Positions 1,036-63,349 of a stretch of DNA of 64,000 nucleotides are shown here, in pieces; within the stretch, counting starts at the first letter, position 1; the number at the start of each line of letters is the position of its first letter. The DNA is taken from NCBI GenBank assembly GCA_963738245.1, contig CAVTWB010000010.1, positions 161,603-225,602 of the forward strand. Direction: 5' to 3'. Source of the DNA: an uncultured Verrucomicrobiae bacterium (GTDB lineage Bacteria > Verrucomicrobiota > Verrucomicrobiia > Limisphaerales > UBA11358). The position numbers and the translations under genes were made by a program. Under the pieces are notes generated by a model. The model saw nothing but the letters and a program-made list of their open reading frames with translations. It did not search any database and had not been told where the DNA came from.

Positions 1036-2589
1036 TTAATTCGCGGCGGAGTTGGTTGTGACAGTCTCAACAGCGTTCGTCACCGCCGCGGGCGGCGTGT
1101 TGGTGGAAACGGGTCCGACAACCGGCGCGACGGTTTCAGCGGGCAAACTGAGCTGGGTTCGCAAAACGGCGCGCATGGCGTAGGGCATGCCTTTCTGCGG
1201 ATCGAGCAGGTCGTTCAGCACGGTGCGATTGTAAACCTCAAACGGCGACAAACCGACACGCGCGAGGTTGCTCTGCATCTTGGAAATCTTCTTCTGATAG
1301 TTGTCATAAACTTTTCGCGCGAGCAGCCGGAAGCCGGCGGAACGGTCGTCCTGCCCGATGGCCAGCTCGTAATAAGACCGCGCCAGCAGCCCTTCGATGA
1401 CCCCGGTGATGCGTTCCTGCGAGGTGTCGCCGACCTCCGATTGCACGCGCGCCACGGCGTATTCGTCGAGCGTGAGATTGCGCGGCAAGGAATTTTGGTC
1501 GTTGTCCAAAATGGGCTTGTCCGGATATTTTTCGCCGAGGATTTTATACCACTTGGCGGCGTCGGCTGCGCGGTTGTTTTCGTAGAGAAAATAAACCGCG
1601 TCCTTCAGAAAATTCCGGTGGGCGTTGCTGATGTGGTCGCGGTTTTTCGCGTCCTCCCGCATCATGGTTTCATACGCATCATTGACTTTGGCAACCAAAT
1701 CCAGATTCGGCTCCAGCGAGGCGGTTTTGGCAAAGGGATCCTTGATGATGCGCCCGTGATGAAACGCCTGGAGCATGGACTGGTAAATAATGCGGCGCAA
1801 AGTGATCACATCATCGGCCTTCACCTTGTCCGGATTTTCCTTCGCTTTTTGCAATCCGAGCGCGCCCCAGTAAATCGCCTGTGCTTCCGGCAGCCGCCAG
1901 TCGAGCGGACCCCATTCCTCGTTCACTTTTTCGGCAAAGGCCGGGTCCATCTTGAATTTTTCGCGCAGCACGAGCGCATTTGTCCGGGCTTCGGCAGACG
2001 TCGGATTGATCAACTCGGAGAAATTCGTCCCGTCGGCGCCAAAAAACGGCTCCATTTCCATCGCCCATTGCTGTTTGTAATACGCATTCGCGTCGTCAAG
2101 ATTTTGCCCCATCTTGTGCTGGAAAAACCACGCCAGTTCGCGATAAATCAAAAGGTCGTTCGGATTGTAGCGCAGGCCTTCGTCGCGCAGCAGTTCGATG
2201 CCGCGCTCGACCCAGCGCCAGCGGTCGGGAAAATCCTTGAACTTGACGGAAATGTTGTAGGCCATGTTCCAGCCTTGAAACAGCCAGACCTGCGTGAAGC
2301 TCGGCTCCAGATCCGTGATCCAGGTGGCGAGCTGCGCCGCCTCGAAAAACTTGTCGTCGTTCTGCAAATCGTTGGCACGAATCCAGAGCGCATTGGCGAT
2401 CAGCCCGCGAAAGCCGCCCAGCGCGACCGTGGTGAACGCCAGCACCGGCGGCGCATTTTCCAGCGCGTTCATGCGCGTCAGGCCGAGCTGTTCGCGGTCG
2501 CGGTTCAGGGCATTTTGCAACTGGCCGGAACCCGCCAGCAAAATTGCCGCGAGCAGGAGCAGAAGAAATTTTTTGGCGCGGGCGTTCAT
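1036..2589 (-). CDS. conserved hypothetical membrane-anchored/exported protein (517 aa)
   Basis: Long ORF with an N-terminal signal/TM (MNARAKKFLLLLLAAILLAG) and a second hydrophobic segment. A 4-nt ATGA overlap with the upstream permease gene suggests an operon. No family recognised. Confidence 0.65.
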   Translation of the reverse strand: MNARAKKFLLLLLAAILLAGSGQLQNALNRDREQLGLTRMNALENAPPVLAFTTVALGGFRGLIANALWIRANDLQNDDKFFEAAQLATWITDLEPSFTQVWLFQGWNMAYNISVKFKDFPDRWRWVERGIELLRDEGLRYNPNDLLIYRELAWFFQHKMGQNLDDANAYYKQQWAMEMEPFFGADGTNFSELINPTSAEARTNALVLREKFKMDPAFAEKVNEEWGPLDWRLPEAQAIYWGALGLQKAKENPDKVKADDVITLRRIIYQSMLQAFHHGRIIKDPFAKTASLEPNLDLVAKVNDAYETMMREDAKNRDHISNAHRNFLKDAVYFLYENNRAADAAKWYKILGEKYPDKPILDNDQNSLPRNLTLDEYAVARVQSEVGDTSQERITGVIEGLLARSYYELAIGQDDRSAGFRLLARKVYDNYQKKISKMQSNLARVGLSPFEVYNRTVLNDLLDPQKGMPYAMRAVLRTQLSLPAETVAPVVGPVSTNTPPAAVTNAVETVTTNSAAN

Positions 2590-3974
2590 TGCGTTCCCTG
2601 CGCCGTCGCCAGTTCACGGCGATGAAACAGCGCGATGCCCGCCAGCGCGACGATGCCGCCGAGCAGCAAAACGATTTGCCCGAACGCCAGCCCCAGTTCA
2701 CTCCAGGTGATGGCCCGGCCGGTGCTCAACGAGTCGATCGGCGAAAAATTTTGCACCAGCCGCGTGACGGCCAGAATGCCCTTGAACATCGGGATCAGCA
2801 CCGCATCCGCGCCCGAATGCCCCATCACGCCGGTCTCCTCGTTGCCGCCCACGACCGTGCCGGACTCGACCGCGTCCGCCAGCGTGCCGCTCGACAGAAT
2901 GACGACCAGCATCGCCAGCGAGAAAAATGCAGCGACCGGAAACGAAAGAAAACTTGCCGCCGCCAGCCCCAGCGCCGCCATCAGCGCCATCCAGCAGAAA
3001 ATGATGCCCAGCCCGCGCGCAAAATTCAGCGCGAAGCCGCCTTCGGGATACAAAACCTCCATGCCGTCCTCGAGCGGGAACAGCAGCGCCGTTTCGTTCG
3101 GGTTCACAAAAATGATGGTGAGCACGCCGTTCGTGTCGAACAGATTCGGCGGGATTTCAAACTCGTGGAACGTGTCCGCCGCGAGGCTCATCGGCATTTG
3201 CGTCTGCCACAGCTTCGTGCTGCCCGGCACGCCGGCCTGCCACAAGGCAAGATAGGTGCCCGACGCGGTTTTCTGCGCCGCGTTGAATTTCACCCGCAGT
3301 TGCAGCGGCTTGTCCTGCAGAAAATTTTTGGCGAACCCCAGGTCAATCTGCCATTCGTGCTGATAGCCTGGCGGCACCACCTGCCATTCGGCCTTGACCT
3401 GCTCGCGAATCTGCTTTTCCACTTCCGGCAGGTCCGCCGTTGTGACCGGGCTGGATTTTAACCGCTCCTGCAAAACCTGTTTCGCCTCGGCGTCAATTTC
3501 CGCGTCGTGACTTTGCTCCTTCGCCGAACCACGCGCGACCAGCACCTGCTCGCGCAAAATTTTTTGTTCCGCCGCCGGCAATTTCCCCGCGCGCCATTGC
3601 AGCAATCCCAAAACGCACACGCCGGAAATCGCCAGCAACACCGCGTTCAGCGACACGATGCCGAGCCACTTGCCGAGCCAGATCTGCCAGCGCGCAATCG
3701 GCTTCGTCGCGACGACCTGGATCTGGCATTCCTCGATGTCGCGCGCCAGCGTGCCGCACGCCAGCCACAACGTCGAAAGCCCGAGCAGCGCCGTGATGGC
3801 GCTCAACGTGTAAGTCAGGATGATCTGCGTGAAACCCTGCGCCGTGCCGTCGTCCTGGATAACGAGCGGCAAACCGACCACCGCCAGGATCAGTAGCACC
3901 GCGATGACGAGGAACAGCTTGAACCGCAGCGCGGCCTTCCAAGTCAACCAGGCAATGGCGAGAATTCTTTGCAT
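2586..3974 (-). CDS. ABC-2/NosY-like transporter permease with a large central extracytoplasmic domain
   Basis: Multiple TM segments at both ends, and an ABC-2-like motif ARDIEECQIQVVATKPIARWQ. It lies downstream of an ABC ATPase gene. Confidence 0.65.
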   Translation of the reverse strand: MQRILAIAWLTWKAALRFKLFLVIAVLLILAVVGLPLVIQDDGTAQGFTQIILTYTLSAITALLGLSTLWLACGTLARDIEECQIQVVATKPIARWQIWLGKWLGIVSLNAVLLAISGVCVLGLLQWRAGKLPAAEQKILREQVLVARGSAKEQSHDAEIDAEAKQVLQERLKSSPVTTADLPEVEKQIREQVKAEWQVVPPGYQHEWQIDLGFAKNFLQDKPLQLRVKFNAAQKTASGTYLALWQAGVPGSTKLWQTQMPMSLAADTFHEFEIPPNLFDTNGVLTIIFVNPNETALLFPLEDGMEVLYPEGGFALNFARGLGIIFCWMALMAALGLAAASFLSFPVAAFFSLAMLVVILSSGTLADAVESGTVVGGNEETGVMGHSGADAVLIPMFKGILAVTRLVQNFSPIDSLSTGRAITWSELGLAFGQIVLLLGGIVALAGIALFHRRELATAQGTQ

Positions 3975-3983
3975 TAAAATTCA

Positions 3984-4054
3984 GTCAGACACGAATTTCA
4001 CGGATTGACACGAATTAAAATCTGGTTGGTGAAAACTCGTGCAACTCGTGTCTC
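3984..4054. repeat. inverted pair of tandem-word arms (acacgaatt-type words), hairpin-forming
   Basis: cagacacgaatttcacggattgacacgaatt ... aaactcgtgcaactcgtgtctc. It fills the spacer between the ABC ATPase stop and the permease start. Confidence 0.55.
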
Positions 4055-5243
4055 ATTTTGGTTTTCCCAGCAGCGACGAAAGTTTCTCATCCGCCTTCGA
4101 CAAATCCACCGGCTTCGATTCCGGTGCAGGTTTGGCCGTTTGCGGGGCTGGCTGGCTGGCCTGTGCCAGCGCTTCGAGTTTTTTGGCATCCACTTTCGGC
4201 GCGGCCGTTGGCAACACCGGCTTGGCTTCAACGGCCACCGGCGCAGCCTGCGGCAGCGACAGCTTTTCCAGAACTTTCTCCGCCGCCGGTTTTGCCTCCA
4301 TGCCGCCGCGCAAATATTCCGCCACGCGCGCCCCGGATTGCGCGCCGCTGGTTTCATGCGCCGCCGTGCGCGCCTTCGCCACCACGTCGAGAAAATAGCT
4401 CTCGAGATTCTGCGTCGGATTGTCCACGCGCACTTCGCCGGTCGAAACGTCCTTGCGGATGATTTCCAAAACCCGTTCCAAAGTTTCGCGCGGAAGCACC
4501 GGCGTGGTGATTTGCAGCGTGTCCGGCGTCGCCAGCAAATCCTTCAGCGTGCCGGCGGCCTGGATTTTTCCGCCATAATAAATCACCACGCGGTCGCAAA
4601 CATCTTCGACATCGGAAAGCAGGTGGCTGCTCAAAATCACCGTCTTGCCGCGCCGCGCCAGCGCGATGATCAAATCCTTCACCTCACGGCAGCCAATCGG
4701 GTCAAGCCCGGCGGTCGGCTCGTCGAGAATCACCAGATCCGGATCATTGATGAGCGCCTGCGCCAGCCCGATGCGGCGCTGCATGCCTTTGGAAAATTCG
4801 CCGACCGCACGCGTCTGCGTTTTGCCGAGGCCAACCATTTCCAGCAATTGTTCCGCGCGACTGTCGCGCTCGCCTTTCGAGAGATGAAACAGGTTTCCGA
4901 AAAAATCCAGCGTCTCGCGCGAATTAAGATAGCGATACAAATATGATTCTTCCGGCAGATAGCCGATGCGCGATTTCGTCTGCACATGTCGTGGCGAATG
5001 GTCGAAGACCTCGATGTGACCCTTGGTCGGATTCAGCAAGCCGAGCAGCAGCTTGACCGTCGTGGATTTGCCGGAACCGTTCGGGCCAAGCAATCCGAAA
5101 ACTTCGCCGCGCCGGACTTCAAAATCCACATTGTCCACCGCGCGCGCCTTCGGGCGGTTCCAGAAATCCTTGAAGACTTTGGTCAGGCCACGAACAGAAA
5201 CAACAACTTCTCCGTTAGATTTCGGATGCGACTCGGCGGACAT
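4053..5243 (-). CDS. ABC transporter ATP-binding protein with a low-complexity A/P/K-rich C-terminal tail
   Basis: Walker A GPNGSGKST, signature-like FSKGMQRR, Walker B LVILDEPTAGLD. The tail reads ...AKPAAEKVLEKLSLPQAAPVAVEAKPV... Confidence 0.9.
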   Translation of the reverse strand: MSAESHPKSNGEVVVSVRGLTKVFKDFWNRPKARAVDNVDFEVRRGEVFGLLGPNGSGKSTTVKLLLGLLNPTKGHIEVFDHSPRHVQTKSRIGYLPEESYLYRYLNSRETLDFFGNLFHLSKGERDSRAEQLLEMVGLGKTQTRAVGEFSKGMQRRIGLAQALINDPDLVILDEPTAGLDPIGCREVKDLIIALARRGKTVILSSHLLSDVEDVCDRVVIYYGGKIQAAGTLKDLLATPDTLQITTPVLPRETLERVLEIIRKDVSTGEVRVDNPTQNLESYFLDVVAKARTAAHETSGAQSGARVAEYLRGGMEAKPAAEKVLEKLSLPQAAPVAVEAKPVLPTAAPKVDAKKLEALAQASQPAPQTAKPAPESKPVDLSKADEKLSSLLGKPK

Positions 5244-5261
5244 AAATCAATAGGTTGAGAT

Positions 5262-7253
5262 TCACGCCATCTTCGGCGTCAATTGACCGGCGGACGGACG
5301 TTCCGGTGTTTCCATTTCGGGATGGAAATGTTCCAGTTCCTCGCCTTTGCGCACGAGCCGGGCGCTGTTGAAAATCACGATGAGCGAGCCGATGTTGTGC
5401 AGCAGCGCCGCCACAATCGGGCCAATGTAGCCGAACGCCGTTGCCGCCAGGCCGACAATAATGAACACGACGCCGAAGGCAAAATTCTGGTTGATGACCG
5501 CGCGCGTGCTGCGAGAGAGATTCACCAAAAACGGGAGGCGGCGCAGATCATTGTTCATCAGCGCAATTGTCGCGCTGTGGATGGCCACTTCGCTGCCCGC
5601 CGCGCCCATCGCGATGCCGATGTCGCCGGCAGCAAGCGCAGGCGCGTCGTTCACGCCGTCGCCGATGACCGCGACTTTGTAGCCTTTCGCTTTCATGGCG
5701 CGGACAAATTCAACTTTGTTCTGCGGCAGACAATCGCCCTTCGCTTCTTCGCAGCCGATCTCGGCGGCGACGCGCGTGGCGACGACTTGCCGGTCGCCGG
5801 AAATCATCGCGACGCGGCGGACGCCGGCTTCTTTCAATTCCGCCAGCGCTTCCTTCGCCTCGGCGCGCGTCTGATCCTGCAGACCGACCCAGCCGACGCA
5901 CTTCCCGTTTTGCGCGACGAAAATCAGGCTCCAGCCTTCGGTTTCGTTCAAGTCCACCGATTTCTCGAAGCTCGCATCAATGCCGTTGTCCTTGAGCCAT
6001 TGCGCGCGGCCAACGAGAATTGTTGCGCCGTGGATTTGCGCCTTCACGCCGCGACCGGCGGTTTCGGCAAAATCTTTCGGCTCGGCCAGCGGAACGCCGG
6101 CTTCGCCGGCGAGCGTGGCGAGGGCCTTGGCGGTCGGGTGGTTGCTGTATTTTTCAGCGGACGCGGCGAGCAGCAAAAGTTCGGCCGGCTTGGTTTCACC
6201 AATTGGCGCGAGGCGGCTGACGGCGAGTTGGCCGGTGGTCAGCGTGCCGGTTTTGTCGAAGACGAACGCGTTGATCTTCGCCGCAAGTTCGATGTCGGCG
6301 ACGTTCTTGATTAAAATTCCCAGACGCGCGGCGGCGGACAGCGCGGCGACCATCGCGGTCGGCGTCGCGAGAATGAAGGCGCACGGACAGGAAACGACGA
6401 ACACGGCGATGACGCGGTTCAAATCGTGCGTGAACGCCCAGACCAGCGCGCCGATGACCAGCACCAACGGCGTGTAAAAACCCATGTATTGATCCACGAT
6501 TTTCTGGATCGGCAATTTGGTTTTTTCGGCGGCGATAATCAGTTCACGCACGCGGCCCAGCGTCGTGTCTTCGCCGGCGCGGCTGACTTTGATTTCCAGA
6601 ACGCCGGTCAGATTTTGCGTGCCGGCAAAAACTTCGTCGCCGGTAATTTTTTCGGCGGGCAAAGATTCACCGGTGATGGTGGCCTGATTGAAGGAGCCTT
6701 GGCCGTTCACAATAATTCCGTCGGCAGCAACATTATCACCGGGACGAATTCTGATTACATCGCCAACCGCAAGCTGGCTCGCGGCGACTTCTTCTTCATT
6801 TCCGTCTTTCAAAATGCGACGCGCTTTCGTCGGAGCTAATTTGATTAAAGATTCGATGGAATTGCGCGCGCCCTCGGCGGTGCGGGTCTCGATGATTTCG
6901 CCGGTGAGCATGAAGAAGGCGACGATGCCGGCGGTCTCGTAATTGCCGGAGGCGAACGCGGCGAGCACGGCGATGGCGACGAGTTCGTTGATGCTCAAAC
7001 GGCCGACACGCAAATCCTTGATGGCGGTCACGACGATTGGATAGCCAAGAATAATCGAGCCGATCATGGCGCTGGCGCTGGCGAGCGTGGTGCCGGATTC
7101 AAACAGCCAGTCCACAATGAAGGCGTTGAGGACAAAGACGACGCCGAGAACCGCCTGCCCGATATGCACAACGGAATGTTCGTGGTCGTGGCCGCAGCCG
7201 CATTCCGGCCCGTGCTCGTGTTCGTGATGGCTCAATAGCGACGTGACTTGCAT
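5262..7253 (-). CDS. heavy-metal translocating P1B-type ATPase with a His-rich N-terminus
   Basis: SCPCAF (CPC) in the TM helix, DKTGTLT phosphorylation site, GDGVNDAPAL hinge. N-terminus SHHEHEHGPECGCGHDHEH. The last TM carries HNIGSLIVIFNS. Confidence 0.92.
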   Translation of the reverse strand: MQVTSLLSHHEHEHGPECGCGHDHEHSVVHIGQAVLGVVFVLNAFIVDWLFESGTTLASASAMIGSIILGYPIVVTAIKDLRVGRLSINELVAIAVLAAFASGNYETAGIVAFFMLTGEIIETRTAEGARNSIESLIKLAPTKARRILKDGNEEEVAASQLAVGDVIRIRPGDNVAADGIIVNGQGSFNQATITGESLPAEKITGDEVFAGTQNLTGVLEIKVSRAGEDTTLGRVRELIIAAEKTKLPIQKIVDQYMGFYTPLVLVIGALVWAFTHDLNRVIAVFVVSCPCAFILATPTAMVAALSAAARLGILIKNVADIELAAKINAFVFDKTGTLTTGQLAVSRLAPIGETKPAELLLLAASAEKYSNHPTAKALATLAGEAGVPLAEPKDFAETAGRGVKAQIHGATILVGRAQWLKDNGIDASFEKSVDLNETEGWSLIFVAQNGKCVGWVGLQDQTRAEAKEALAELKEAGVRRVAMISGDRQVVATRVAAEIGCEEAKGDCLPQNKVEFVRAMKAKGYKVAVIGDGVNDAPALAAGDIGIAMGAAGSEVAIHSATIALMNNDLRRLPFLVNLSRSTRAVINQNFAFGVVFIIVGLAATAFGYIGPIVAALLHNIGSLIVIFNSARLVRKGEELEHFHPEMETPERPSAGQLTPKMA

Positions 7254-11164: not shown

Positions 11165-11250
11165 GTTAAATCGTTAAATCGTTACTTTGTTAAATCGTTG
11201 CACCGGGATTTGCCGAACCGGTTTAACGATTCGACCATTCAACAATTTAG
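11165..11250. repeat. inverted pair of tandem-word arms (gttaaatc words)
   Basis: gttaaatc gttaaatc gttacttt gttaaatc gttgcaccgg ... ccggtttaacgattcgaccattcaacaattt. Occupies the spacer between two minus-strand genes. Confidence 0.6.
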
Positions 11251-12317: not shown

Positions 12318-14808
12318 TTACGCCATCGCGCGGGCGATGCTGTTCCACCACGCGTCGTGCAGTTCGGTGAGCGGGGCGGAGAATTCGCCGCTGGCGGTTT
12401 TCACCGTCAGCTTGTCGCCGCCGACTTTGCCGATTTGCACCGCGGGCACGCCCATGAGCTTGGCGCGTTCGACGACTTTCACGGCGTCGAGCGCCTTGCA
12501 ACTGATGACGATGCGCGATTGCGTTTCGCCGAAGAGCAACGCGTCGAGGCGCGTAGTGGTAGGGACGCGTTCCACCGCGTCCCCATCTTCCAGTTTGGGA
12601 CGACGTGGAAGTCGTCTCTACCAACGAAAGATCAATCGTCGCGCCGATAAGGCGCGGCGTTTCGCGGGCGATGAGTTGGCTAATGCAGCTTTCCGCGAGC
12701 GCGACGGCGAGGCCGCCTTCGCTGCAATCGTGCGCGCTCTTCACGAGGCCGGATTGGATCAGGCCGATGAGCGTGGTGTGCAGCGTCTTCGCGACTTCAA
12801 GGTCGCAGCGCGGCGGCGAACCGTTCTTCTTGCCGTGGACGACTTGCAGATACGCGCTGCCGCCGAGGCCGAAAATCGGATCGTCTTTGTCCACCGCTTC
12901 GCCGAGCAGGATGATGGCGTCGCCTTCGTCCTTGAACCATTGCGTGGTGACGTGCTCCAGCTTCTCGATGAGGCCGACGACGGAAATCGTGGGCGTCGGA
13001 TCAATCGGGCCGGCGGGGCTTTGATTGTAGAGCGAGCAATTGCCGCCGGTGACGGGCGCGTTGAAGGCTTTGCAACCTTCCGCCAGACCGCGCACGGATT
13101 CCTTGATCTGCCAGAACAGCTCGGGCTTGAGCGGGCTGGGCATGTTGAGATTGTCCGTCGCGCCGAGCGGAATCGCGCCGGAGCAAGCGAGATTGCGGCA
13201 CGCTTCGGCCACGGCGATTTTCGCGCCTTCGTAGGGATCGAGATAAACGTAACCGCCGTTGCAATCCACGGTCATGGCGATCAACTTCTCGGAAACTGTC
13301 GGGTCGCCAACTTTCGCGGCGAGTTCCGCGCTCATCACGGGCAACGAATCCGTCTTGATGCGGATGACCGCCGCGTCGCTGCCGGGCAGAACGACTGAGC
13401 CGTCGCGCACTTGATGATCGTATTGGCGATAGACCCAGTTCTTCGACGCGATGCTCGGCCACGCCAAAAGCTTTATCAAATCGTCAGACGGGAGATTGGG
13501 TATCGGGAATATCCGTCCAGCCGGAACGCTCGAACATCTTTCAGATACGCCGGCTCAACGGCTTCGCGCTGATACACCGGCGATTCGTCGGCAATTTTCC
13601 GCGCGGGAATATCCACGACGAGTTTGCCGCCGTGCCGCACCTTCATGTGGCCGGTGTCGGTGATGATGCCGATCTCGGACCACGGCAAATCCCACTTGTC
13701 GAAAATGCGTTTCACTTCCTCTTCGCGGCCCTTGTGGACGACGATGAGCATGCGCTCCTGCGATTCCGAAAGCATGATCTCGTAGCTGCTCATGTTCGGC
13801 GCGCGTTGCGGAACTTTGTCGAGTTCGATCTCGATGCCCGTGCCGGCGCGCGCCGCCATTTCGCAGGTGGAACAGGTCAAACCCGCCGCGCCCATGTCCT
13901 GCATGCCGGCGACGCAACCGGTGGCGAGCAGTTCGAGGCACGCTTCGCACACGAGTTTTTCCATGAACGGATCGCCGACCTGCACCGCGCCGCGCTGTTG
14001 CTCGGCGGATTCCTCGGTCAAATCCTGCGACGCAAACGCCGCGCCCGCGAGACCGTCGCGACCCGTCGCCGGGCCGACGTAAAACACGGGATTGCCCACG
14101 CCCTTGGCCGCGCCGCGCGTGATCTGTTCGTGGCGCAGCACGCCGAGGCAGAACGCGTTCACGAGCGGATTGCCTTGATACGTCTTGTCGAAATACACCT
14201 CGCCCGCGACGGTCGGGATGCCGAAGCAATTCCCGTAATGCGCGATGCCGCTGACGACGCCGGCGAACAGGCGGCGGTTGTTGCGATTTCGATTTTGTGC
14301 TTTGGGGATCACGCGCCCTCGGCGTTGCGACGACCCCGTCGTTCGAATTTCGATTGACGAGGCGTCACCGCGACGGTCGCGCTCCCGTTTATTCGTCCGT
14401 GATCGGCCCAAAGCGCAGCGAGTTCACCGCGCAGACCGGCCGCGCGCCCATCGTGAAAATGTCGCGCACGATGCCGCCGACGCCGGTGGTCGCGCCCTGA
14501 AACGGCTCGACCGCGCTCGGATGGTTGTGCGACTCGATCTTGAACGCGATGGCGATGCCGTCGCCGATGTCAATGATGCCGGCATTTTCCTCGCCCGCGC
14601 CGACGAGGATTTTCGGCGACTTGGTGGGGAAGGTCTTGAGCAGCGGCTTGGTGTTTTTGTAGCTGCAATGCTCGCTCCACATCACGGAAAAGATGCCGAG
14701 CTCGGTGTAGCTCGGCGTGCGGCCGAGGATTTCCACGGCGTGGGCGTATTCTTCCGGCGTGAGGTTGTGCTTGGCAACCAACTCTGGGGTGATGGCGGGT
14801 TCGGTCAT
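12318..14808 (-). pseudogene. purL: phosphoribosylformylglycinamidine synthase subunit PurL, split over four frames as assembled
   Basis: Pieces read in order: [11 protein letters not shown]...CSYKN...[24 protein letters not shown]...[10 protein letters not shown]; then [26 protein letters not shown]...; then LLAWPSIASKNWVYRQYDHQV...PVTGGNCSLYNQ...; then RLDALLFGETQSRIVISC...WWNSIARAMA*. The breaks are near 14389, 13480-13520 and 12575-12610. Confidence 0.88.
14281..14307 (-). repeat. heptamer-word repeat inside purL (part of an insertion of about 110 nt)
   Basis: The coding strand reads CCCCAAA GCACAAA ATCGAAA TCGCAAC and encodes PKAQNRNRN immediately before the conserved [11 protein letters not shown]. 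Confidence 0.55.
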
Positions 14809-14969
14809 GGAAAAAATTTTAATTCAATTAAACTTGGCAGCTCGCGCGTCAATTTCCGGGCGAAACTCAATTTCAATCCGGTCAAAGTAAAACTTTCAGT
14901 CGCGCTTGGAAATCAAAAACCAAAAGCCGTGAGCCACGGCAGGCAATGGCCAACCGCAAGGTTCAAAAC

Positions 14970-14996
14970 GGCCTTTAGAAACGGAGGCCTTTTTTT
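14970..14996 (+). terminator. orphan plus-strand intrinsic-terminator-like hairpin upstream of brnT
   Basis: GGCCT ttagaaacgg AGGCC followed by T7. No plus-strand gene lies upstream of it. Confidence 0.4.
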
Positions 14997-15033
14997 GTTT
15001 GCAGCCACGGCTTCCGTCGGTTCAACTTTCCCC

Positions 15034-15315
15034 ATGCTCACGTTTGAATGGGACGCGAACAAGGCCAGAGCCAATCTGACCAAGCACGCCGTCAGCTTTC
15101 AGGAGGCCACCACGGTTTTTGGCGATCCGGTTTCCATCACCATTCCCGACCCGGCGCACTCGCAGGCCGAGAACCGGTTCATCATTTTGGGCAAGTCGCA
15201 TCAGGGCAGAATTCTGGTTGTCGCCCACACCGAACGCGGCGATAATATCCGTGTCATCAGCGCGCGACCCGCGAGCCGCCGCGAAAGAAAACAATATGAG
15301 CAAGCCATCAGCTAA
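15034..15315 (+). CDS. brnT: BrnT-family (DUF497) toxin
   Basis: MLTFEWDANKARANLTKHAVSFQEATTVFGDP...RFIILGKS..GRILVVAHTERGDNIRVISARPASRRERKQY, which is the characteristic BrnT pattern. Confidence 0.8.
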   Translation: MLTFEWDANKARANLTKHAVSFQEATTVFGDPVSITIPDPAHSQAENRFIILGKSHQGRILVVAHTERGDNIRVISARPASRRERKQYEQAIS

Positions 15316-15517
15316 ATCAGCAGATAAAGAAATGCAGCCGGAATATGATTTTTCAGCCGGTGTGCGTGGCAAGCATTTCCGGCGCTACCAGCGCGGCACG
15401 AACGTGGTGGTGCTCGATCCGGACGTGGCCAAGTTTTTTTCCAACGCCGAAACCGTGAACGATTCGCTGCGCGCACTCGCGGGCATCATCCGCCGCCAAA
15501 AAGTTGTGGTGAAATAA
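15296..15517 (+). CDS. brnA: BrnA-like antitoxin
   Basis: Overlaps the brnT 3' end by 20 nt. Contains PEYDFSAGVRGKH...VVVLDPDVAKFF...SLRAL, typical of antitoxins partnered with BrnT. Confidence 0.65.
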   Translation: MSKPSAKSADKEMQPEYDFSAGVRGKHFRRYQRGTNVVVLDPDVAKFFSNAETVNDSLRALAGIIRRQKVVVK

Positions 15518-15519
15518 TT

Positions 15520-16134
15520 ATGAAGAAAACCTGTATTGTGATGGTTGCGATTATTTTGGTCGCAATTCTCAATCAGGGATGCTCCTCTCTTGGTGAACTG
15601 CCGTCCGGCAAGGTATGGTATAAGCCCGGAATAAGCGAAGATCAAACACAGTTGGATTGGTTGATTTGCCAACAAGTAGCATTGCAAAACGGCTCTCTTC
15701 AAGCAGCCCCCAATCAAATACAAGCAACACCCAGCCAATCTTACAATCCACCTACCACTGTTCAACCGAATGCTTACGGTTTGGGAGTCAATGCCGACCA
15801 ATATGGCCGGCCAAGCACCTACCAGTTGCAAAATGGCCAACAACTCGATCCGATATTCAACGCAGGTGTGAAGCAAAACGCGTATGGACCAGGCGTTGGG
15901 CAAGACCAGTTTGGGAGACCTGTTTATAATACTCCATACGATAATGCTGCATCTGGAAATTATGGACAGGGAAGTGATGCCGGGGGACAGATTGCCTTAA
16001 ACATGCTAAATGTGATGGCAGAAAACGGCAGAGCCAAAAGCTTAATGACGGCAAAGGGGTATCGTTTAGTAAGCACAAATTCACCTTCGCTGATAAACAG
16101 ACCGCTGCATTTTACTGACGCGGACTTTAAATGA
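15520..16134 (+). CDS. lipoprotein of unknown function, Q/N/G/P-rich with a duplicated NAYGxGVxxDQ[YF]GRP motif
   Basis: Lipobox ILNQGC. Starts 2 nt after the brnA stop. Visibly lower GC than the flanks. Confidence 0.6.
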   Translation: MKKTCIVMVAIILVAILNQGCSSLGELPSGKVWYKPGISEDQTQLDWLICQQVALQNGSLQAAPNQIQATPSQSYNPPTTVQPNAYGLGVNADQYGRPSTYQLQNGQQLDPIFNAGVKQNAYGPGVGQDQFGRPVYNTPYDNAASGNYGQGSDAGGQIALNMLNVMAENGRAKSLMTAKGYRLVSTNSPSLINRPLHFTDADFK

Positions 16135-16170
16135 ACGACAAGGGCGGCCAGTGTTACAAAAACACTGCTT

Positions 16171-16641
16171 ATGAATAAACCAGCGGCTGTCATTGATAAA
16201 TCGCTGTTGCAGGCCATTTGCGAACAAAAGGCAGAGAAACGGAGTGCTTATTACAAAGCATTGTCCAAGCACTATCAAGTAGTCGTTACGCTGGTTTTGG
16301 TTGAAGAAATTTGGGTCAACATTGCAAAACCTAACGAAAAAACACCGCCAACGGTTCTTGCAAACTTGCAGGATTTTCTTCGATTACACGATTCGTGGAT
16401 TGCTGATCCTTTAGAAATTGCGTTTGCCGAGCTTGTAAAAGGAGAGTCAGTTAAAATCCTTCCACGACCAGCTAATAATTTGGAGCATAGTTTTTCCATA
16501 CTGCGTCCTGAAAATCCAGCACTGGTAAATTGGGTAGAAATCAGGCGATCAAAATACTTGGCCGTGGATTTCGCGACCAATTTAATAATCTTGCCGATGA
16601 AAGATATGTCCAATCTGCATTGCTGTGTGACCGATTATTAA
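16171..16641 (+). CDS. hypothetical protein (low GC); may continue in the 16530-16766 frame after a frame break near 16540
   Basis: ORF of 156 aa. The overlapping +1 ORF continues in a protein-like way (..AIKILGRGFRDQFNNLADERYVQSALLCDRLL..). No family recognised. Confidence 0.4.
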   Translation: MNKPAAVIDKSLLQAICEQKAEKRSAYYKALSKHYQVVVTLVLVEEIWVNIAKPNEKTPPTVLANLQDFLRLHDSWIADPLEIAFAELVKGESVKILPRPANNLEHSFSILRPENPALVNWVEIRRSKYLAVDFATNLIILPMKDMSNLHCCVTDY

Positions 16642-16851
16642 CGCGTGACAAAGGAATGCACAATGTTATGACACTGCTCAAAGATTGCGGGTTTTGGGAT
16701 GGAATATCTGTCTTCATTGATCCCAAAAAAGACATGGAAATTCAAATTTCTCAAAGCCTAATCTAGTTTTAGAAAAATTCTTCCACCCATTCTGCATTCG
16801 TTCAAGCGCGGGCAATTCATCCAAGATTTTCTGGATGACTGCCCTTCGGAA

Positions 16852-17136
16852 TTACTGCCCCGCATCCAGCCGCAGCAGGCAATGGCCGAAATCCACCACC
16901 GGCTGGCCGGGCGTGGGCAGATATTGGCGCACGATCTGGTAGACGCCGCCGCGCCCCCGCTCCACCAGTCCCGCCTTCTGCAAAACTTGCAGATGTTTGA
17001 CGCTGCTGTCGTAGCTGCAACCGCCCACCGCCGCCAGTTCGGCAATCGTCCGCGCCTCGCCGCAGGTCAATTCCTTGAGCATCTTCCAGCGCGACATCTG
17101 GTTGATGGCTTGAAGCGCCCGTTTGAGGTCGGGCAA
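16852..17136 (-). CDS. ArsR/SmtB-family winged-helix transcriptional regulator
   Basis: RWKMLKELTCGEARTIAELAAVGGCSYDSSVKHLQVLQKAGLVERGRGGVYQI matches the ArsR-type HTH pattern. TTG start. Confidence 0.7.
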   Translation of the reverse strand: MPDLKRALQAINQMSRWKMLKELTCGEARTIAELAAVGGCSYDSSVKHLQVLQKAGLVERGRGGVYQIVRQYLPTPGQPVVDFGHCLLRLDAGQ

Positions 17137-17220
17137 CGGCTTGACGATGGCATTTTTCGCGTGTTCTAGGTGTTGAATTCATGCAGAAAACCTTAAATAA
17201 TGGGGAAATCAATGTCAACT

Positions 17221-17525
17221 GACGGATCGCTTATTCTGTTGACAGGATGGCTTCTTCTGTCAGGCGAGGAATGGAATTTTTATCGGCGGGAATGCTTTTT
17301 CCATAGGAGGGACGTAAACATTTTCTACAGAAGAGATGGCATTCTTCTTCGGCGGGATGGAATTGTTTGCTGGCAGGATTTTGCCTAAGATTGTCGGCGA
17401 GATTGCTTTGTTTGTCGGCCGGAATGCCTTTTCTTTCAGCCGGATTGCTTATTACTCGGGCCGGCCGGCCTTTTCGTTCCGGCGGATTCGCCTTTAATCA
17501 CGGCGCGAGTCCATTTGCTCATGCC
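17221..17525. repeat. tandem array A1: about 14-15 degenerate units of about 21 bp (GGCGGGA-type dyad core plus T-tract)
   Basis: Unit starts at 17221, 17241, 17263, 17285, 17306, 17330, 17351, 17372, 17396, 17417, 17438, 17459, 17481 and 17502. Example units: ggcgggaatgctttttccata, ggcaggattttgcctaagattgtc, ggcggattcgcctttaatcac. The right end is 8 nt from the purQ stop. Confidence 0.85.
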
Positions 17526-17533
17526 TTTCATGC

Positions 17534-18244
17534 TCACGCCGCCTGCGCGACGGCTTTGTTTTTGAGCGCGGCGAAGATGCTTTCGAAAATCCATTTGCCG
17601 TCGTCGCTGCCGAGGAGTGGTTCGCAGGCGCGTTCGGGATGCGGCATCAGGCCGGCCACGTTGCGCTGTTCATTGCAGATGCCGGCGATGTTTTGCAGCG
17701 CGCCGTTGGGATTCGCGGTGTCGGTCAGGTTTCCGCTGGCGTCGCAGTATTGCCAGAGCACCTGGCGGTGGGCCACCAAGCTGTCGAGCGTCTCTTTATC
17801 AGCGTAGTAGCAGCCTTCGCCGTGGGCGATGGGCACGCGGAGGATTTTGCCCGCCGGAATCTTGCTGGTGAACGGCGAATCGTTCGTGGCGGTCTTGAGG
17901 TGGATGAATTCGCAGTGAAATTTCAGGTCGCGGTTGCGGATGAGCGCGCCGGGCAGCAAGCCGGCTTCGGTGAGGACTTGAAAGCCGTTGCAGATGCCGA
18001 GGACGAGGCCGCCGTTGTCGGCGAATTGTTTCACGGCCTGCATGACGGGGCTGAACCGCGCGATGGCGCCGCAGCGCAGATAATCGCCGTAGCTGAAACC
18101 GCCGGGGACGATGACGCAGTCGGTGTCGCCGAGGGAGGCGTCCTTGTGCCAGACGAGCCGCGCGGAATGGCCGAGCAGGCGGACGGCGTGGACGGCGTCC
18201 TGGTCGCAGTTGCTGGCGGGGAATTGTAAAACAGCGAAGTTCAT
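17534..18244 (-). CDS. purQ: phosphoribosylformylglycinamidine synthase I (glutaminase) PurQ
   Basis: MNFAVLQFPASNCDQD...VIVPGGFSYGDYLRCGAIA...GICNGFQVL...PHPER. Confidence 0.94.
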   Translation of the reverse strand: MNFAVLQFPASNCDQDAVHAVRLLGHSARLVWHKDASLGDTDCVIVPGGFSYGDYLRCGAIARFSPVMQAVKQFADNGGLVLGICNGFQVLTEAGLLPGALIRNRDLKFHCEFIHLKTATNDSPFTSKIPAGKILRVPIAHGEGCYYADKETLDSLVAHRQVLWQYCDASGNLTDTANPNGALQNIAGICNEQRNVAGLMPHPERACEPLLGSDDGKWIFESIFAALKNKAVAQAA

Positions 18245-47312: not shown

Positions 47313-47393
47313 CGGATTGATGGATTATTGGATGAATGGATTGCTGAAAGGCTGCCAATTCATTTATCCACCAATCCTAACATCCGTTCATCC
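47313..47393. repeat. inverted pair of four-word arms (ggattgat-type 8-mers) downstream of purH
   Basis: ggattgat ggattatt ggatgaat ggattgct ... caattcat ttatccac caatccta acatccgt tcatcc. Confidence 0.65.
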
Positions 47394-54001: not shown

Positions 54002-54891
54002 ATGTTAAAACGCAAAGAACTGCCCGTTGCGCTCACCATCGCCGGCTCGGACAGCGGCGGCGGCGCGGGCGTTCAGGCCGATCTGAAAACGTTTGCCGCG
54101 CTTCGGCGTCCACGGCACCAGCGCGATTGCCTGCCTCACCGCGCAAAATCCAAAACAGGTTTTGGCGGCCGAGCCGTGTTCGCCCAAAATGCTGCGGCGG
54201 CAGATCGAAGCCGTGTTTGCCGAACTGAAACCGGCGGCGGTGAAAACCGGAATGTTGTTTTCGGTGGAAAACATTTCCGTCGTCGCGGATTTCTACCGCA
54301 ACTCGAAACTGAAAACTAAAAACTCAAAACTGATCGTGGATCCGGTCATGGTATCCACCAGCGGCGCTAAATTGCTCCAGCCGGCGGCGGTAAAAATCCT
54401 GACGGGAAAAACTGCTGCCACTGGCCGCGCTCGTCACGCCGAATCTGGACGAGGCGGAAATTCTGGCGGAACAAAAAATTTCGTCGCCGGAGGATTTGCG
54501 TGCCGCCGCGCGGAAAATCCAGGCGCGTTTCGGCTGTGCGGTTTTGGTGAAAGGCGGCCACCTGAAAAATTCCCGCGAGGCAATTGACGTTTTCTTCGAC
54601 GGAGAAACGGAACTGCTGCTGTCCGCTCCGTTTGTGAAGGGCGTTTCGACGCACGGCACCGGCTGCACTTATTCCGCCGCGATTTGCGCCGCGCTGGCGC
54701 TCGGCCACGATTTGCCGCACGCGGTGGAGATCGGGAAAAATTTCATCACGGCAGCTATCGCCGGCAGCTTCCGCATCGGAAAACATTTCGCGCTCGGATA
54801 TTTTCCGCTCAAAGATCCGGCCAGCTCAACTGGTAAAACTGGTTCGCATTTGTCGCGTTCAGGAAAATGTAATTGCTGCCGTTCGCGATGA
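54002..54891 (+). pseudogene. thiD: hydroxymethylpyrimidine/phosphomethylpyrimidine kinase ThiD, two +1 frame breaks as assembled; true 3' end uncertain
   Basis: [24 protein letters not shown] | [15 protein letters not shown]...KTGML...IVDPVMVSTSGAKLL... | LLPLAALVTPNLDEAEIL...VLVKGGHL...GTGCTYSAAICAALA. There is an extra base near 54101-54105 and one in the A-run at 54407-54411. Confidence 0.85.
54300..54332 (+). repeat. 33-nt four-heptamer element E1, in-frame in thiD
   Basis: AACTCGAAACTGAAAACTAAAAACTCAAAACTG encodes [11 protein letters not shown] directly before the conserved IVDPVM. Confidence 0.85.
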
Positions 54892-56563: not shown

Positions 56564-57307
56564 ATGTCCGACACGCTCGTCGTCAACGAAGTCTATTTGA
56601 GCCTGCAGGGTGAAAGCACCTTCGCCGGGCTGCCGTGCATTTTCATCCGGCTCACCGCGTGCGACTTGCGCTGCTCCTACTGCGACACCGCCTACGCCTT
56701 CACCGAAGGCAAAAAGAAAACGCTCGCGGAAATTCTGGCGGAAGTCCGTCGGCAGGCCGCGCCGTTTTTGAATTCAAAATTAAATATTCAAAATTCAAAA
56801 CTGCCCTTGGTGGAACTGACCGGCGGCGAGCCGCTGCTCCAGAAAAATTCCCTGCCGCTGATGAAATCGCTCTGCGACGACGGCTTCACCGTTTTGCTCG
56901 AGACCAGCGGCGCGCATGACATTTCCAAAATTGACCCGCGCGTCCGCCGCATCATGGACTTGAAATGCCCGTCCAGCGGCGAAGTTGCCCGCAACCGGTT
57001 TGAAAACATTGCGCACCTGAAAGCCACGGACGAAATCAAATTCGTCATCGGCACGCGGGAGGATTATGATTGGGCCAAGCTGCAAATTGCCGAGCACCAG
57101 CTTGCTTCCGTCTGCCCGCTGCTGTTTTCCTGGGTGCATCCGCTCACGCCGGCGCAGCAGAGCAAGGTGCTCAAAAAAGTTCCCGCCGGGCACACGCCGA
57201 TTTCCCGCCGGGAGCTCGCGGAAAAAATCATCGCCGACGCGCTGCCGGTGCGTTTCCAAATCCAGCAGCACAAAATCATCTGGCCGCCGGAACAGCGCGG
57301 CGTTTAG
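56564..57307 (+). CDS. queE: 7-carboxy-7-deazaguanine synthase QueE (radical SAM)
   Basis: VNEVYLSLQGESTFAGLPCIFIRLTACDLRCSYCDT...ELTGGEPLLQ... Confidence 0.88.
   Translation: MSDTLVVNEVYLSLQGESTFAGLPCIFIRLTACDLRCSYCDTAYAFTEGKKKTLAEILAEVRRQAAPFLNSKLNIQNSKLPLVELTGGEPLLQKNSLPLMKSLCDDGFTVLLETSGAHDISKIDPRVRRIMDLKCPSSGEVARNRFENIAHLKATDEIKFVIGTREDYDWAKLQIAEHQLASVCPLLFSWVHPLTPAQQSKVLKKVPAGHTPISRRELAEKIIADALPVRFQIQQHKIIWPPEQRGV
56771..56803 (+). repeat. 33-nt four-heptamer element E2, in-frame in queE
   Basis: AATTCAAAATTAAATATTCAAAATTCAAAACTG encodes NSKLNIQNSKL directly before PLVELTGGEP. Confidence 0.85.
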
Positions 57308-57308
57308 C

Positions 57309-57388
57309 AATTTACGATTTACGATTGCCGATTTACGATTGGCAAAACAGCGGCGCGTAAATCGTAAATCAAAAATCGTAAATTCGTG
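57309..57388. repeat. inverted pair of 33-nt four-heptamer arms (atttacg words) filling the queE-aminotransferase spacer
   Basis: AATTTAC GATTTAC GATTGCC GATTTAC GATTG gcaaaacagcggcg CGTAAAT CGTAAAT CAAAAAT CGTAAAT TCGTG. The right arm includes the GTG start at 57386. Confidence 0.75.
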
Positions 57389-57714
57389 ACCACAACAGAG
57401 ACTTTTCAATTACTCCGCGACTACGAATCGCGCAACATCGTGTTCATTGAGCCCGACGGCTCGTGGCCGATTGTCTGGGAACGCGCCAAGGGCGTTCACG
57501 TCTGGGATGCGGAGGGCAAAAAATATCTGGATCTGACCGCCGCGTTCGGCGTCGCCGCCGCCGGCCACGCGAATCCAAACGTCGTTCGCGCCGGGACAGA
57601 AACAGATGGCCAAACTGCTGCACGCGATGGGCGATGTGCATCCGCACGCGCTCAAGGCCGAACTCGCGCGGGAATTGAGCCGCATCACTTTCGAGCGGTG
57701 GAGCAGCCTGTCAG

Positions 57715-57747
57715 AACTCAAAACTAAAAATTCAAAATTCAAAACTG
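57715..57747 (+). repeat. 33-nt four-heptamer element E3, in-frame in the aminotransferase but in a different codon phase
   Basis: AACTCAAAACTAAAAATTCAAAATTCAAAACTG is read as (E)LKTKNSKFKT(G) directly before KVIFSNSG. Confidence 0.85.
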
Positions 57748-58448: not shown

Positions 58449-58483
58449 AATTCAAAATTCAAAATTCAAAATTCAAAATTCTG
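58449..58483 (+). repeat. 35-nt variant E4 of the four-heptamer element, coinciding with an aminotransferase frame break
   Basis: AATTCAAAATTCAAAATTCAAAATTCAAAATTCTG. Compared with the canonical ...CAAAACTG end it has 2 extra nt (TT at 58479-80). Confidence 0.8.
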
Positions 58484-61465: not shown

Positions 61466-61515
61466 ATTGTTATATCGCCCGCAAAATTTCGATTCAACGA
61501 TTCAACAATTTAACC
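61444..61515. repeat. inverted pair of tandem-word arms overlapping the nudix 3' end
   Basis: cgttaaatcgttgaagtgttgaattgtt ... tcgattcaacgattcaacaatttaacc. The left arm encodes the last residues FVKSLKC*. Confidence 0.6.
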
Positions 61516-61569
61516 ATTCAGCGATTCTTCCACACTTTACTTGCGGCGAAAATGGAGTAGTTATTTCCC

Positions 61570-62196
61570 ATGCAAAATTATTTCGTTCCGATTGTGGTGG
61601 AGCAGACCGGGCGCGGTGAGCGGAGCTGGGACATTTATTCCCGCCTGCTCGTGGACCGCATTCTTTTCCTCGGCACGCCGGTGGATGACAACGTCGCCAA
61701 CATCATCATCGCGCAGCTTTTGTTTCTCCAGATGGCCGACCCGAAGAAGGACATCCATCTCTACATCAATTCGCCCGGCGGCAGCGTCACGGCGGGGCTG
61801 GCGATCTACGACACCATTCAATACATGACCTGCGACGTGAACACCTATTGCGTCGGGCAGGCGGCGAGCATGGGCGCGGTGCTGCTGGCGGCGGGCACGA
61901 AGGGCAAGCGTTACGCGCTGCCGAATTCCAACGTCATGATCCACCAGGTGCTCGGCGGCGCCGAAGGGCAGGCGAGCGACGTGGAAATTCGCGTGAAGCA
62001 CATGCTCAAGCTCAAGCAGACGCTGAACGCCATCCTCTCGAAACACACGGGCAAGCCGGTGGAACAGGTGGAGAAGGATTGCGACCGCGACAATTTCATG
62101 ACGGCCGACGAAGCGAAAGCCTACGGCCTCGTGGATCACGTCGTGCAGTCGCGCCGGGAAATTCCCGGCGCGGAAAAAAGCTCCGTGGTGGTTTGA
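61570..62196 (+). CDS. clpP: ATP-dependent Clp protease proteolytic subunit
   Basis: [31 protein letters not shown]...[17 protein letters not shown]...[11 protein letters not shown]...IHQVLGG. Confidence 0.95.
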
Positions 62197-62253
62197 GAAA
62201 ATCAGGTTGTCAGTCGCGCAGCCAATGAAAGCGGCGTAGTTGGGGCAATTTTC

Positions 62254-62590
62254 CCCTGCGCGCGGGGTAAATTCACCTTCGTGCGGGCATATTTCGTTCC
62301 CGTGCGGGCATCATTTACCCCCGTGCGCCTTGTTTTCGCCTCCATACAGGTGTTTTTCACTCCCCATCGCCTGTTTTCGGCTCCGTGCGGGGCATTTGCT
62401 GGTTCGTGCGGGCGTTTTTCACTCCGTGCGGGCCATCGGCCCGTCCGTGCGCCCGTTTTTCGGTTCGTGCGGAGGATTTGCCGCTCCGTGCGGACCAACT
62501 CCCGCTCCGTGCGGGCGGCCTCGGCTGCCGAACAGCCATTTCCCGTTCCGTGCGGCTGTGCAGAAAAATATTGCGCCCGTCCGCAACCGG
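62254..62590. repeat. tandem array A2: about 16 slots of 20-21 bp (CCGTGCGGGC dyad core plus T-tract)
   Basis: GTGCG cores at 62281, 62302, 62323, 62385, 62406, 62426, 62447, 62467, 62488, 62509 and 62550 (spacings 21, 21, 62, 21, 20, 21, 20, 21, 21, 41). Example units: ttcgtgcgggcgtttttcac, tccgtgcgcccgtttttcgg. Confidence 0.88.
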
Positions 62591-62662: not shown

Positions 62663-63349
62663 ATGAAACAAAAAATCATCAGTCTTCTAGCGACCTTCAA
62701 ATCCACCGACGCCTTCGGCATCAAATACGCTGCCGACTATCCTGCCGGCAGCGTCGGCGCGACGCAATTCGCCCTCGTTCACGCCGCCGTGCCGCAGACC
62801 AGCACCCTCGGCGCCGCGCAGGTTTCCAGTTCCGAACAAATTGACAGCGCCGTGCTGGGCAAGGTCGCCGGACGATTGCATCTGCGGCAGGACATGCTCG
62901 GCATCACCGACGCCGTTCATTCCCTCGTCCTGCTCGGCACGCCGGGACTCGACGGAAAATTTCACATGCCGCGCAGCGCGGGCGACCAGGCCCTGCTCAA
63001 TTCCGCCCGCGCCTTTGCTGCGGACGCCCCGGCCTTCTCCGCGCCATTCATCAGCGTCGGCCTCGCCGCCGATTTCATCGCCCATCTCACCAGCGACATC
63101 GCCGATTTTGAAACCGTCATTGGCAGCAAAAACACCGGCACCGGCACGGAAGCCGCCGCCACCGGCGGCATGGACGACACCGCGCAAAAAGCCGCCGTGG
63201 CGTTGCATGTGCTGAACACCGTCGTGAAGAACACCTGCAAAAACGACCCGGCTAAGCTCGCCGAATGGGCCACCGCCAGCCATGTCGAAAAACACACGCC
63301 CGTCCCGCGCGCCAAACCGGCTCCGGCTCCGGCGGCGACACAGAAATAA
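62663..63349 (+). CDS. hypothetical protein (228 aa), alanine-rich, no signal peptide
   Basis: ATG-initiated ORF starting 73 nt after array A2, with protein-like composition. The track ORF from 62240 reads through the repeat array and was trimmed. Confidence 0.55.
   Translation: MKQKIISLLATFKSTDAFGIKYAADYPAGSVGATQFALVHAAVPQTSTLGAAQVSSSEQIDSAVLGKVAGRLHLRQDMLGITDAVHSLVLLGTPGLDGKFHMPRSAGDQALLNSARAFAADAPAFSAPFISVGLAADFIAHLTSDIADFETVIGSKNTGTGTEAAATGGMDDTAQKAAVALHVLNTVVKNTCKNDPAKLAEWATASHVEKHTPVPRAKPAPAPAATQK

Follow-up and report, generated by a model that had tools for sequence, protein, structure and literature searches.

On comparative sequence evidence, the repeat array A1 and the small ArsR-like gene lying directly downstream of it are the two parts of a conserved, previously undescribed module in Verrucomicrobia; no published description of this pairing of an array with a winged-helix (wHTH) gene was found in the literature. 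A1 lies at 17221-17525 of the window (the whole 64,000-nt stretch of DNA that was analysed). It is probably the cis half of a self-contained unit, the other half being the product of the adjacent gene, which would coat the array cooperatively on one face of the DNA.

The linkage of array and gene across relatives carries this reading. A metagenome scan with an alignment of the wHTH protein gave 80 loci, 72 of which could be tested. In 71 of these 72, autocorrelation over the 370 nt preceding the wHTH gene peaks at a lag of 21 or 42; a lag-21 identity of at least 0.40 is reached by 67 of the 72 upstream regions and by none of 75 downstream controls. The pairing also holds at four of four genome loci, on six further contigs, and for five of five distant homologs, representatives at about 30-35% identity which retain the signature C-terminus of the family. 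It is kept for two paralogs 13 kb apart on one contig and in four contigs of an ftsK-linked subfamily, the set with this pairing running from L161 to L168. In L165-L168 (about 2040-5330) the subfamily module lies directly downstream of ftsK on four independent contigs, and its AT-rich core ends in TGACAA. Two of 80 genome loci, L010 and L055, share with the window copy both the array, orthologous unit by unit, and the wHTH gene, again downstream of purQ, and in them the gene starts at the ATG of a conserved block, TTGACA-N17-TAAGGT-N7-ATG; a 57%-identical paralog at another locus, L007, has its own 21-bp array, unrelated in sequence, directly upstream. The only family gene without an array is that of L118 (431-1396 and 1582-1899; L119 is identical), where an IS-type DDE transposase (PF01609, E = 7e-28) stands in the array's place and the wHTH gene has an in-frame stop. 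Array loss and gene loss are coupled. The original prediction, that these are non-coding phased sites and that the neighbouring ArsR-like protein is their binder, draws strong support from this comparative linkage, with binding itself as the conditional element.

A1 is itself a genuine array, as had been claimed. Its lag-21 identity is 0.486 (z = 8.8 against 500 shuffles), autocorrelation harmonics appear at 42/45 and 63/66, and the arrays of relatives are likewise periodic at 21. Autocorrelation, weight-matrix segmentation and ortholog comparison together place about 14 head-to-tail 21-bp units at 17217-17519 on the - strand; over this span 11 units score 6 bits or more with a class-specific weight matrix and three are decayed (17385-17369, about 17326-17303 and 17281-17259), in agreement with the 14-15 units counted at the outset. 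Cutting at the unit starts first proposed gives units 20-24 nt long in which a T-tract follows a GC-rich core on the + strand; read on the - strand, which is the sense of the wHTH gene, the consensus of what we call the class-1 unit is a.AAaAAgc.atCCcgccga. The copies are only about 50% alike, which is why Tandem Repeats Finder reports the first two units alone (17220-17260). A comparable 21-periodicity is found at one further place in the 64-kb window, 62.2-62.6 kb. The partial dyad symmetry ascribed to the core did not hold up: the self-reverse-complement similarity of the A1 consensus is 0.10 (p = 0.94), and dyad symmetry of the unit lies within chance in 58 of 61 related arrays, the three that exceed the 95% control level being the number due to chance. 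The placement of all cores and T-tracts on one face of the helix also fails for the window copy, because cumulative indels (+1, +2, +3, +3, +1) make the register drift by about 9 nt across the array; its spacing is irregular (22, 28+17, 45, 23).

The putative wHTH promoter, read from sequence on the - strand, consists of a -35-like hexamer, TTGACA, at 17213-17218, which the promoter-proximal unit overlaps, and a -10-like hexamer, TAAGGT, at 17190-17195, which is separated from the -35 by 17 nt and from the ATG by 7 nt and is conserved in class-1 loci. Such close placement of the -10-like hexamer to the start codon implies a leaderless mRNA. The ancestral ATG, which L010 and L055 allow to be recognised at 17180-17182 (- strand), stands 1 nt out of frame with the remainder of the gene: the interval from ATG to TTG codon is 46 nt in the window and 45 nt in those two relatives, locating a +1 insertion between 17137 and 17179. 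A leaderless transcript in the window would thus be translated in the wrong frame. From the TTG start there extends a 94-aa ORF (16852-17136, - strand), assigned to the ArsR-like winged-helix proteins through Pfam, NCBIfam and PDB profiles, AlphaFold2 with Foldseek, and family alignments; it ends in the family-specific C-terminus PVVDFGHCLLRLDA, and full-length relatives have 109 aa. Orthologs of the window array, unlike the window copy, are in perfectly regular register. The window module appears to be under relaxed constraint or decaying, unless its indels are assembly errors.

Across the family, about 10-15 clear units, asymmetric and head to tail, make up an array. Of 1167 steps between units, 1043 measure exactly 21 nt; the exceptions lie mostly at the noisy distal ends of segmentations. 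Class-1 units stand at exactly -54, -75, -96 and onward from the ATG. Among 55 unique promoters, 37 have a -35-like TTGNNN whose first base lies 36 nt ahead of the ATG, and nine others have it at 35 nt, so that the wHTH mRNA appears leaderless. Whatever the class, the array stops at the -35, which its last unit overlaps. Similarity between units barely decays with distance (0.545, 0.543, 0.528 and 0.516 at lags of 21, 42, 63 and 84). Within class 1, information content per position is inversely correlated with substitution between orthologs (rho = -0.82, p = 4e-6), which points to selection on a shared consensus and not to recent amplification, and indicates that the unit cores are under purifying selection. 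One very homogeneous array, at about 2650-2960 of L172 (GGCAACTCATCTTCGCCAAAC repeated about 15 times, lag identity 0.66-0.68), suggests recent amplification or homogenisation in at least some lineages. A general 42-bp super-period was considered and discarded, being seen in just 12 of 61 arrays.

Intrinsic curvature had also been predicted for the array, and here the relatives and the window copy part company. Under a Bolshoy-Trifonov wedge model with approximate wedge parameters, strong curvature is predicted for most intact arrays, with ratios of end-to-end to contour length of 0.33-0.70 against 0.92 +/- 0.05 for shuffles, and the predicted curvature disappears once the units are de-phased. 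Arrays of the L120 and L125 types come out as the most curved. The arrays of L010 and L082 come out mildly curved; the window array, at 0.94, is predicted to be straight.

Unit cores differ between protein clades, and their classes track the recognition helix. The core AAAAAGCAATCC.GCCGA goes with the helix CSY(E/A)(S/N)G(I/V)KHLQVL, the core TGCC...TCCATTT with C(S/G)YDNA(S/A)(K/Q)HLA.L, and the core TAa.A.TAT..AT..TGACAA with CSPDMTSKH; L007, with the helix CTRDAASKH, has its own core, which lacks TCC. The co-variation of core and helix is confounded by shared ancestry. Two paralogs of one genome have different cores and nearly identical recognition helices: specificity would then reside partly elsewhere, or the protein would read only a TCC-type sub-motif. 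With occurrences in at least five different genomic contexts, the class-1 core follows the protein rather than the locus.

The family protein, of about 109 aa, falls into roughly 200 clusters at 90% identity per search, and at the 50%-identity level 190 representatives match at E <= 1e-10; members are labelled hypothetical or as generic regulators. Its core is predicted to be an ArsR/SmtB-type winged helix. AlphaFold2 predicts helices at 4-10, 14-23, 31-38 and 42-54 together with strands at 58-60 and 65-68 (pLDDT 91-97); the top Foldseek hits are CadC, CzrA, SmtB and HlyU, at a TM of about 0.6 over 65-70 residues; a PDB profile search gives E = 4e-6, and matches to NF033788 have E values from 1e-7 to 1e-11. 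Proteins of the window and L010 type score under curated cut-offs (HTH_20, 19.8 bits against 27; NF033788, 31-44 bits against 55), and the L007/ftsK-linked subfamily has precomputed PF01022 and PF12840 hits. In the model no helix follows the wing. The place of alpha5 is taken by a Pro-rich linker with short strands (81-83 and 86-88) and a near-invariant PxVDFGHCLLRL, a beta-hairpin tail for which the confidence of the monomer model is low (pLDDT about 45-52). This C-terminal tail would mediate contacts between protomers.

In the mechanism that we propose, one protomer would sit on each asymmetric 21-bp unit and, 21 bp being two helical turns, all protomers would lie on one face of the DNA. Neighbouring protomers would be coupled head to tail, probably through the PxVDFGHCLLRL tail, and the outcome would be a cooperative nucleoprotein array of roughly 300 bp on DNA that, in intact copies, is intrinsically curved. 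Since the last unit overlaps the -35 of the gene's own leaderless promoter, occupancy would feed back on synthesis of the protein, most likely as repression. The sequences themselves establish the periodicity, a near-absolute linkage of gene and array, a constant geometry relative to the promoter, selection on the cores, their divergence between clades and paralogs, and that the array does not code for protein; binding of the protein, its stoichiometry, the part played by the tail, the sign of regulation and any role beyond autoregulation are inferred. Several considerations weigh against the proposal: ArsR proteins are normally dimers on inverted repeats, and the sites here are direct and asymmetric; the confounded co-variation of core and helix, the low confidence of the tail model and the approximate wedge parameters count on the same side; and 21-bp arrays also occur upstream of unrelated genes, which would fit a lineage-wide factor or a mechanism favouring 21-bp arrays.

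Eight arrays of the latter kind, or orphans, among the genome loci and in the window, have the same period and length and no family gene near, so the class of arrays is broader than the sampled wHTH family. One is the second array of the window (62240-62560, + strand, within 62203-62590), with a period of 21/41 bp and the core CCGCACGGAGCGAAAAAC on the - strand, between clpP (61570-62196) and a gene for an unknown 228-aa protein (62663-63346); its architecture is that of A1, its core is different, and it ends at a promoter-like site for the latter gene, TTGCGC-N16-TATAAAT. Orphan arrays in five loci share one orthologous intergenic site, between a YdjM-like gene and an ABC-2 permease gene (L001 14358-14720, L018 18323-18639, L052 18387-18687, L027 10042-10346 and L026 16864-17236), where three unrelated cores are found across species, one of them reversed in orientation; sequence evidently turns over at this site, and position, period and length are kept. 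A family HMM found no divergent wHTH gene adjoining the orphan arrays. Nor do their cores match those of the sampled family members, the best similarity being about 0.5, and the idea that they are trans targets of those members was dropped.

Orphans with the same period, length and promoter-abutting position at unrelated genes, some of them at one orthologous site with unrelated cores between species, speak for another account, in which the arrays are generic promoter-upstream curved DNA or the 21-bp sites of a ubiquitous factor, and the wHTH protein is not the binder. Phased A/T tracts and predicted curvature are common, which fits as well. We consider this account unlikely: the linkage to one small family is near-absolute over a range of about 30-100% identity, array and gene are lost together, the core moves with the protein and not with the locus, the 16-20-nt cores are under purifying selection, for which curvature alone gives no need, and some intact arrays (L010, L082) are only weakly curved in the model. 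An origin of the iteron type, or a plasmid or phage partition centromere left by an integrated mobile element, is less probable still, and we think it very unlikely. Two-helical-turn direct repeats beside a winged-helix gene do resemble the iteron-Rep and tubC-TubR layouts; the module can be the whole of a hotspot insert (790-836 nt, L010 and L055), and accessory or defence genes are often its neighbours. Set against this are a single 109-aa winged helix in place of a two-domain Rep, the lack of an NTPase, GTPase, integrase or conserved partner, the absence of the family from viral contigs, with only generic ArsR hits on plasmids, and the occurrence of paralogous modules amid the housekeeping genes of one chromosome, with no target-site duplication visible.

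Readings in which the function of A1 lies in its transcript or its translation have still less in their favour. The + strand might be a CsrB/RsmZ-like sponge RNA offering GGA to a CsrA-type protein: it has 13 GGA, the - strand has three, 4.4 are expected and none of 5000 shuffles reaches 13, and a sigma70-like TTGAAT-N17-AATAAT on the + strand is directed into the array. Yet the GGA bias of A1 simply mirrors the TCC conserved in class-1 units, which reads as GGA on the other strand, and GGA is missing from the arrays of L007, the ftsK-linked class and L172. The + strand 'promoter' partly coincides with the wHTH start region and lacks conservation; Rfam gives no hit at the gathering score or at E up to 10; fold stability equals that of shuffles on both strands (z = -0.05 and 0.38); the sole terminator found is inside the array and none follows it; no CsrA-like sequence occurs in 1.59 Mb of related DNA; and a rigid 21-nt spacing is not a property of sponge RNAs. 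We put the chances of such an RNA very close to nil, and take it to be effectively refuted by Rfam, by the folds, by the GGA-free classes and by the identity of the conserved block with the wHTH start region. The notion that the array is a live or decayed protein-coding heptad repeat has the least chance of all. It appeals to a period divisible by three (21 nt being seven codons), to long stop-free frames through some arrays, and to ORFs called inside arrays in L163 (5631-5963, 110 aa) and L172 (2652-2945, 97 aa). These last are an annotation artefact, which comes about because the repeat units are stop-free. A fully open frame over the 252-nt core, in any register, exists in just 28 of 61 unique arrays, and no consistent frame is found among the 61; mismatches between orthologs are flat over the three codon positions (1148/1158/1180) and range from 61 to 282 by unit position; conserved positions are contiguous, with no third-base wobble; and steps other than 21 show no preference for multiples of three. 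The codon-position and open-frame figures refute a coding repeat, and the original prediction was right to dismiss the heptad-like peptides as artefacts. The reading that we retain is the two-part module, with the wHTH protein as the candidate ligand of its array.

The setting of the module in the window is that of an insertion. PurQ relatives at 84-93% identity place the window in Verrucomicrobiota, order Limisphaerales. purQ (17534-18244, - strand; PF13507, E = 6e-43; purS is next) is a flanking housekeeping gene outside the module, and A1 is not a read-through extension of it: the in-frame continuation of purQ meets stop codons at once. A low-GC accessory islet (about 14900-16800), containing a toxin-antitoxin (TA)-like pair, a lipoprotein and an unknown ORF, has been inserted with the module between purQ and purL. 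The whole gap (about 14808-17534) comprises the module, the TA-like pair (a DUF497/BrnT-like sequence and a partner ORF at 15119-15517), the lipoprotein ORF and the unknown ORF. Among 61 purQ loci, the purQ-purL gap is 12-15 nt in seven and 136-3760 nt in the 54 others. The junction is a general insertion hotspot in the lineage and the module is one of its many cargos; at this hotspot no insertion scar is recognisable and no target-site duplication is visible. The insert of L010 (790 nt) and that of L055 (836 nt) consist of the module and nothing else. A1 had been described as sitting exactly at the boundary between purQ and a low-GC islet. The step in GC exists, with purQ and purL at 0.62-0.65 and the islet (about 15.3-16.9 kb) at 0.41-0.50; the position is incidental, because the junction is a general hotspot and the module can be there by itself.

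Modules are found in chromosomal settings, next to genes such as purQ, ftsK, clpP and aconitase, and several paralogous modules can lie among the housekeeping genes of one chromosome. The family is absent from viral contigs, and on plasmids only generic ArsR hits were obtained. No conserved partner gene was found near the module: 119 flanking proteins fall into 78 neighbour clusters, and the gene downstream is convergent in 28 and co-directional in 23 unique loci, across gaps of 3-899 nt. Accessory or defence cargo is often beside modules, as in L161-L164, which have a BamHI-like restriction-modification system, toxin-antitoxin pairs and a KAP NTPase.

Repeats of comparable spacing are familiar from the iterons of R6K, pSC101, RK2, F and P1, direct repeats of about 17-22 bp, or about two helical turns, to which a winged-helix Rep binds on one face, with an adjacent, autoregulated rep gene. 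Iterons usually number three to seven and lie beside an AT-rich unwinding element on a replicon, and Rep has two winged-helix domains and a mass of about 30-40 kDa. The module shares the spacing of two helical turns, exact at 21 nt in 1043/1167 steps; unlike the iteron systems, it has a single 109-aa domain and is chromosomal, and no unwinding element, replicon or two-domain Rep is seen. Canonical ArsR/SmtB proteins form dimers through alpha5 helices on one or two 12-2-12 inverted repeats. The family described here has the same winged-helix core as CadC, CzrA, SmtB, HlyU and BigR; it differs in lacking alpha5 and in being associated with 10-15 asymmetric direct repeats instead of an inverted repeat.

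In the TubR-tubC system, a small wHTH gene lies directly downstream of direct repeats, and the complex covers and represses the promoter; the tubC array extends to about 350 bp, over which TubR spreads cooperatively, bending the DNA (PMC6009700). In pBtoxis, tubC is made of 12-bp units, as cited in 10.1101/2022.04.29.490116. The module resembles this arrangement in having its wHTH gene directly downstream of an array that overlaps the promoter. It differs in that its 10-15 units of 21 bp are contiguous, whereas tubC repeats are short and split into blocks; in having no partner of the TubZ type, GTPase or other motor NTPase, whereas TubR works with TubZ in an operon on plasmids and phages; and in being chromosomal, with several paralogs per genome. 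TubR is absent from the top 50 structural matches of the family protein. In the stbS-StbA system of plasmid R388, the gene of a small HTH protein is preceded by direct repeats and autoregulated, and cooperative binding on one face is combined with the lack of a dedicated NTPase (10.1101/2022.04.29.490116). The direct-repeat array upstream of the gene of a small DNA-binding protein is common to both; unlike the module, stbS consists of two sets of five 9-bp repeats with an 11-bp cycle, and StbA has another fold, is plasmid-borne and controls conjugation genes too. Head-to-tail polymers of small proteins without classical dimerisation domains on direct repeats are described for proteins of the BldC and Xis/RdfS types (PMC5859096, PMC11963761); in contrast to the module, these belong to other folds or families, occupy few sites, act on other genes or on recombination sites, and have no dedicated array upstream of their own gene. 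By analogy, then, the layout and the presumed action of the module come closest to the tubC-TubR and stbS-StbA arrays and to iteron-Rep spacing, and on defining features it belongs with none of them.

If the protein binds as proposed, it represents a family with a fixed spacing rule (a protomer every two helical turns, 10-15 of them consecutively, up to the -35) and a recognised sequence that diversifies freely, with orthogonal protein-array pairs coexisting in one genome. Such a family would serve as a model of how cooperative filaments of protein on DNA co-evolve with their specificities, would supply orthogonal, programmable operator-repressor pairs of high cooperativity, and would give a first handle on regulation and chromosome architecture in the Limisphaerales, which are abundant in soil, peat and freshwater and almost unstudied. 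A more far-reaching idea, which we advance as a speculation with the balance tilted clearly against it, is that of a chromosomal nucleoprotein element of a new kind. Monomers of an ArsR-derived protein would join head to tail via a dedicated C-terminal tail along 10-15 sites exactly two helical turns apart, and would wrap about 300 bp of curved DNA into a defined superstructure with a role beyond self-repression; several orthogonal paralog-array pairs per genome would serve as independent addresses, and the orphan arrays would belong to this system too, served in trans. In such a role the element might act as a centromere or organiser that needs no motor, as an ultrasensitive bistable switch, or, where accessory and defence islets begin or end, as an insulator or roadblock. 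Annotation would gain as well, since the 300-bp array regions are at present left unannotated or taken for ORFs, and their proteins go by the name of hypothetical.

The window also contains many short tandem runs of 7-8-nt units, at 568-601, 11165-11199, 47314-47342, 54306-54333, 56771-56800, 57310-57383, 57711-57746, 58449-58481 and 61490-61527. Their units include TGGACTT (x4.9), AATTCAA (x4.7), TCAAAAC (x5.1) and CGATTCAA (x4.8), as well as an inverted ATTTACG/CGTAAAT pair, and the runs are reminiscent of heptad operator arrays.
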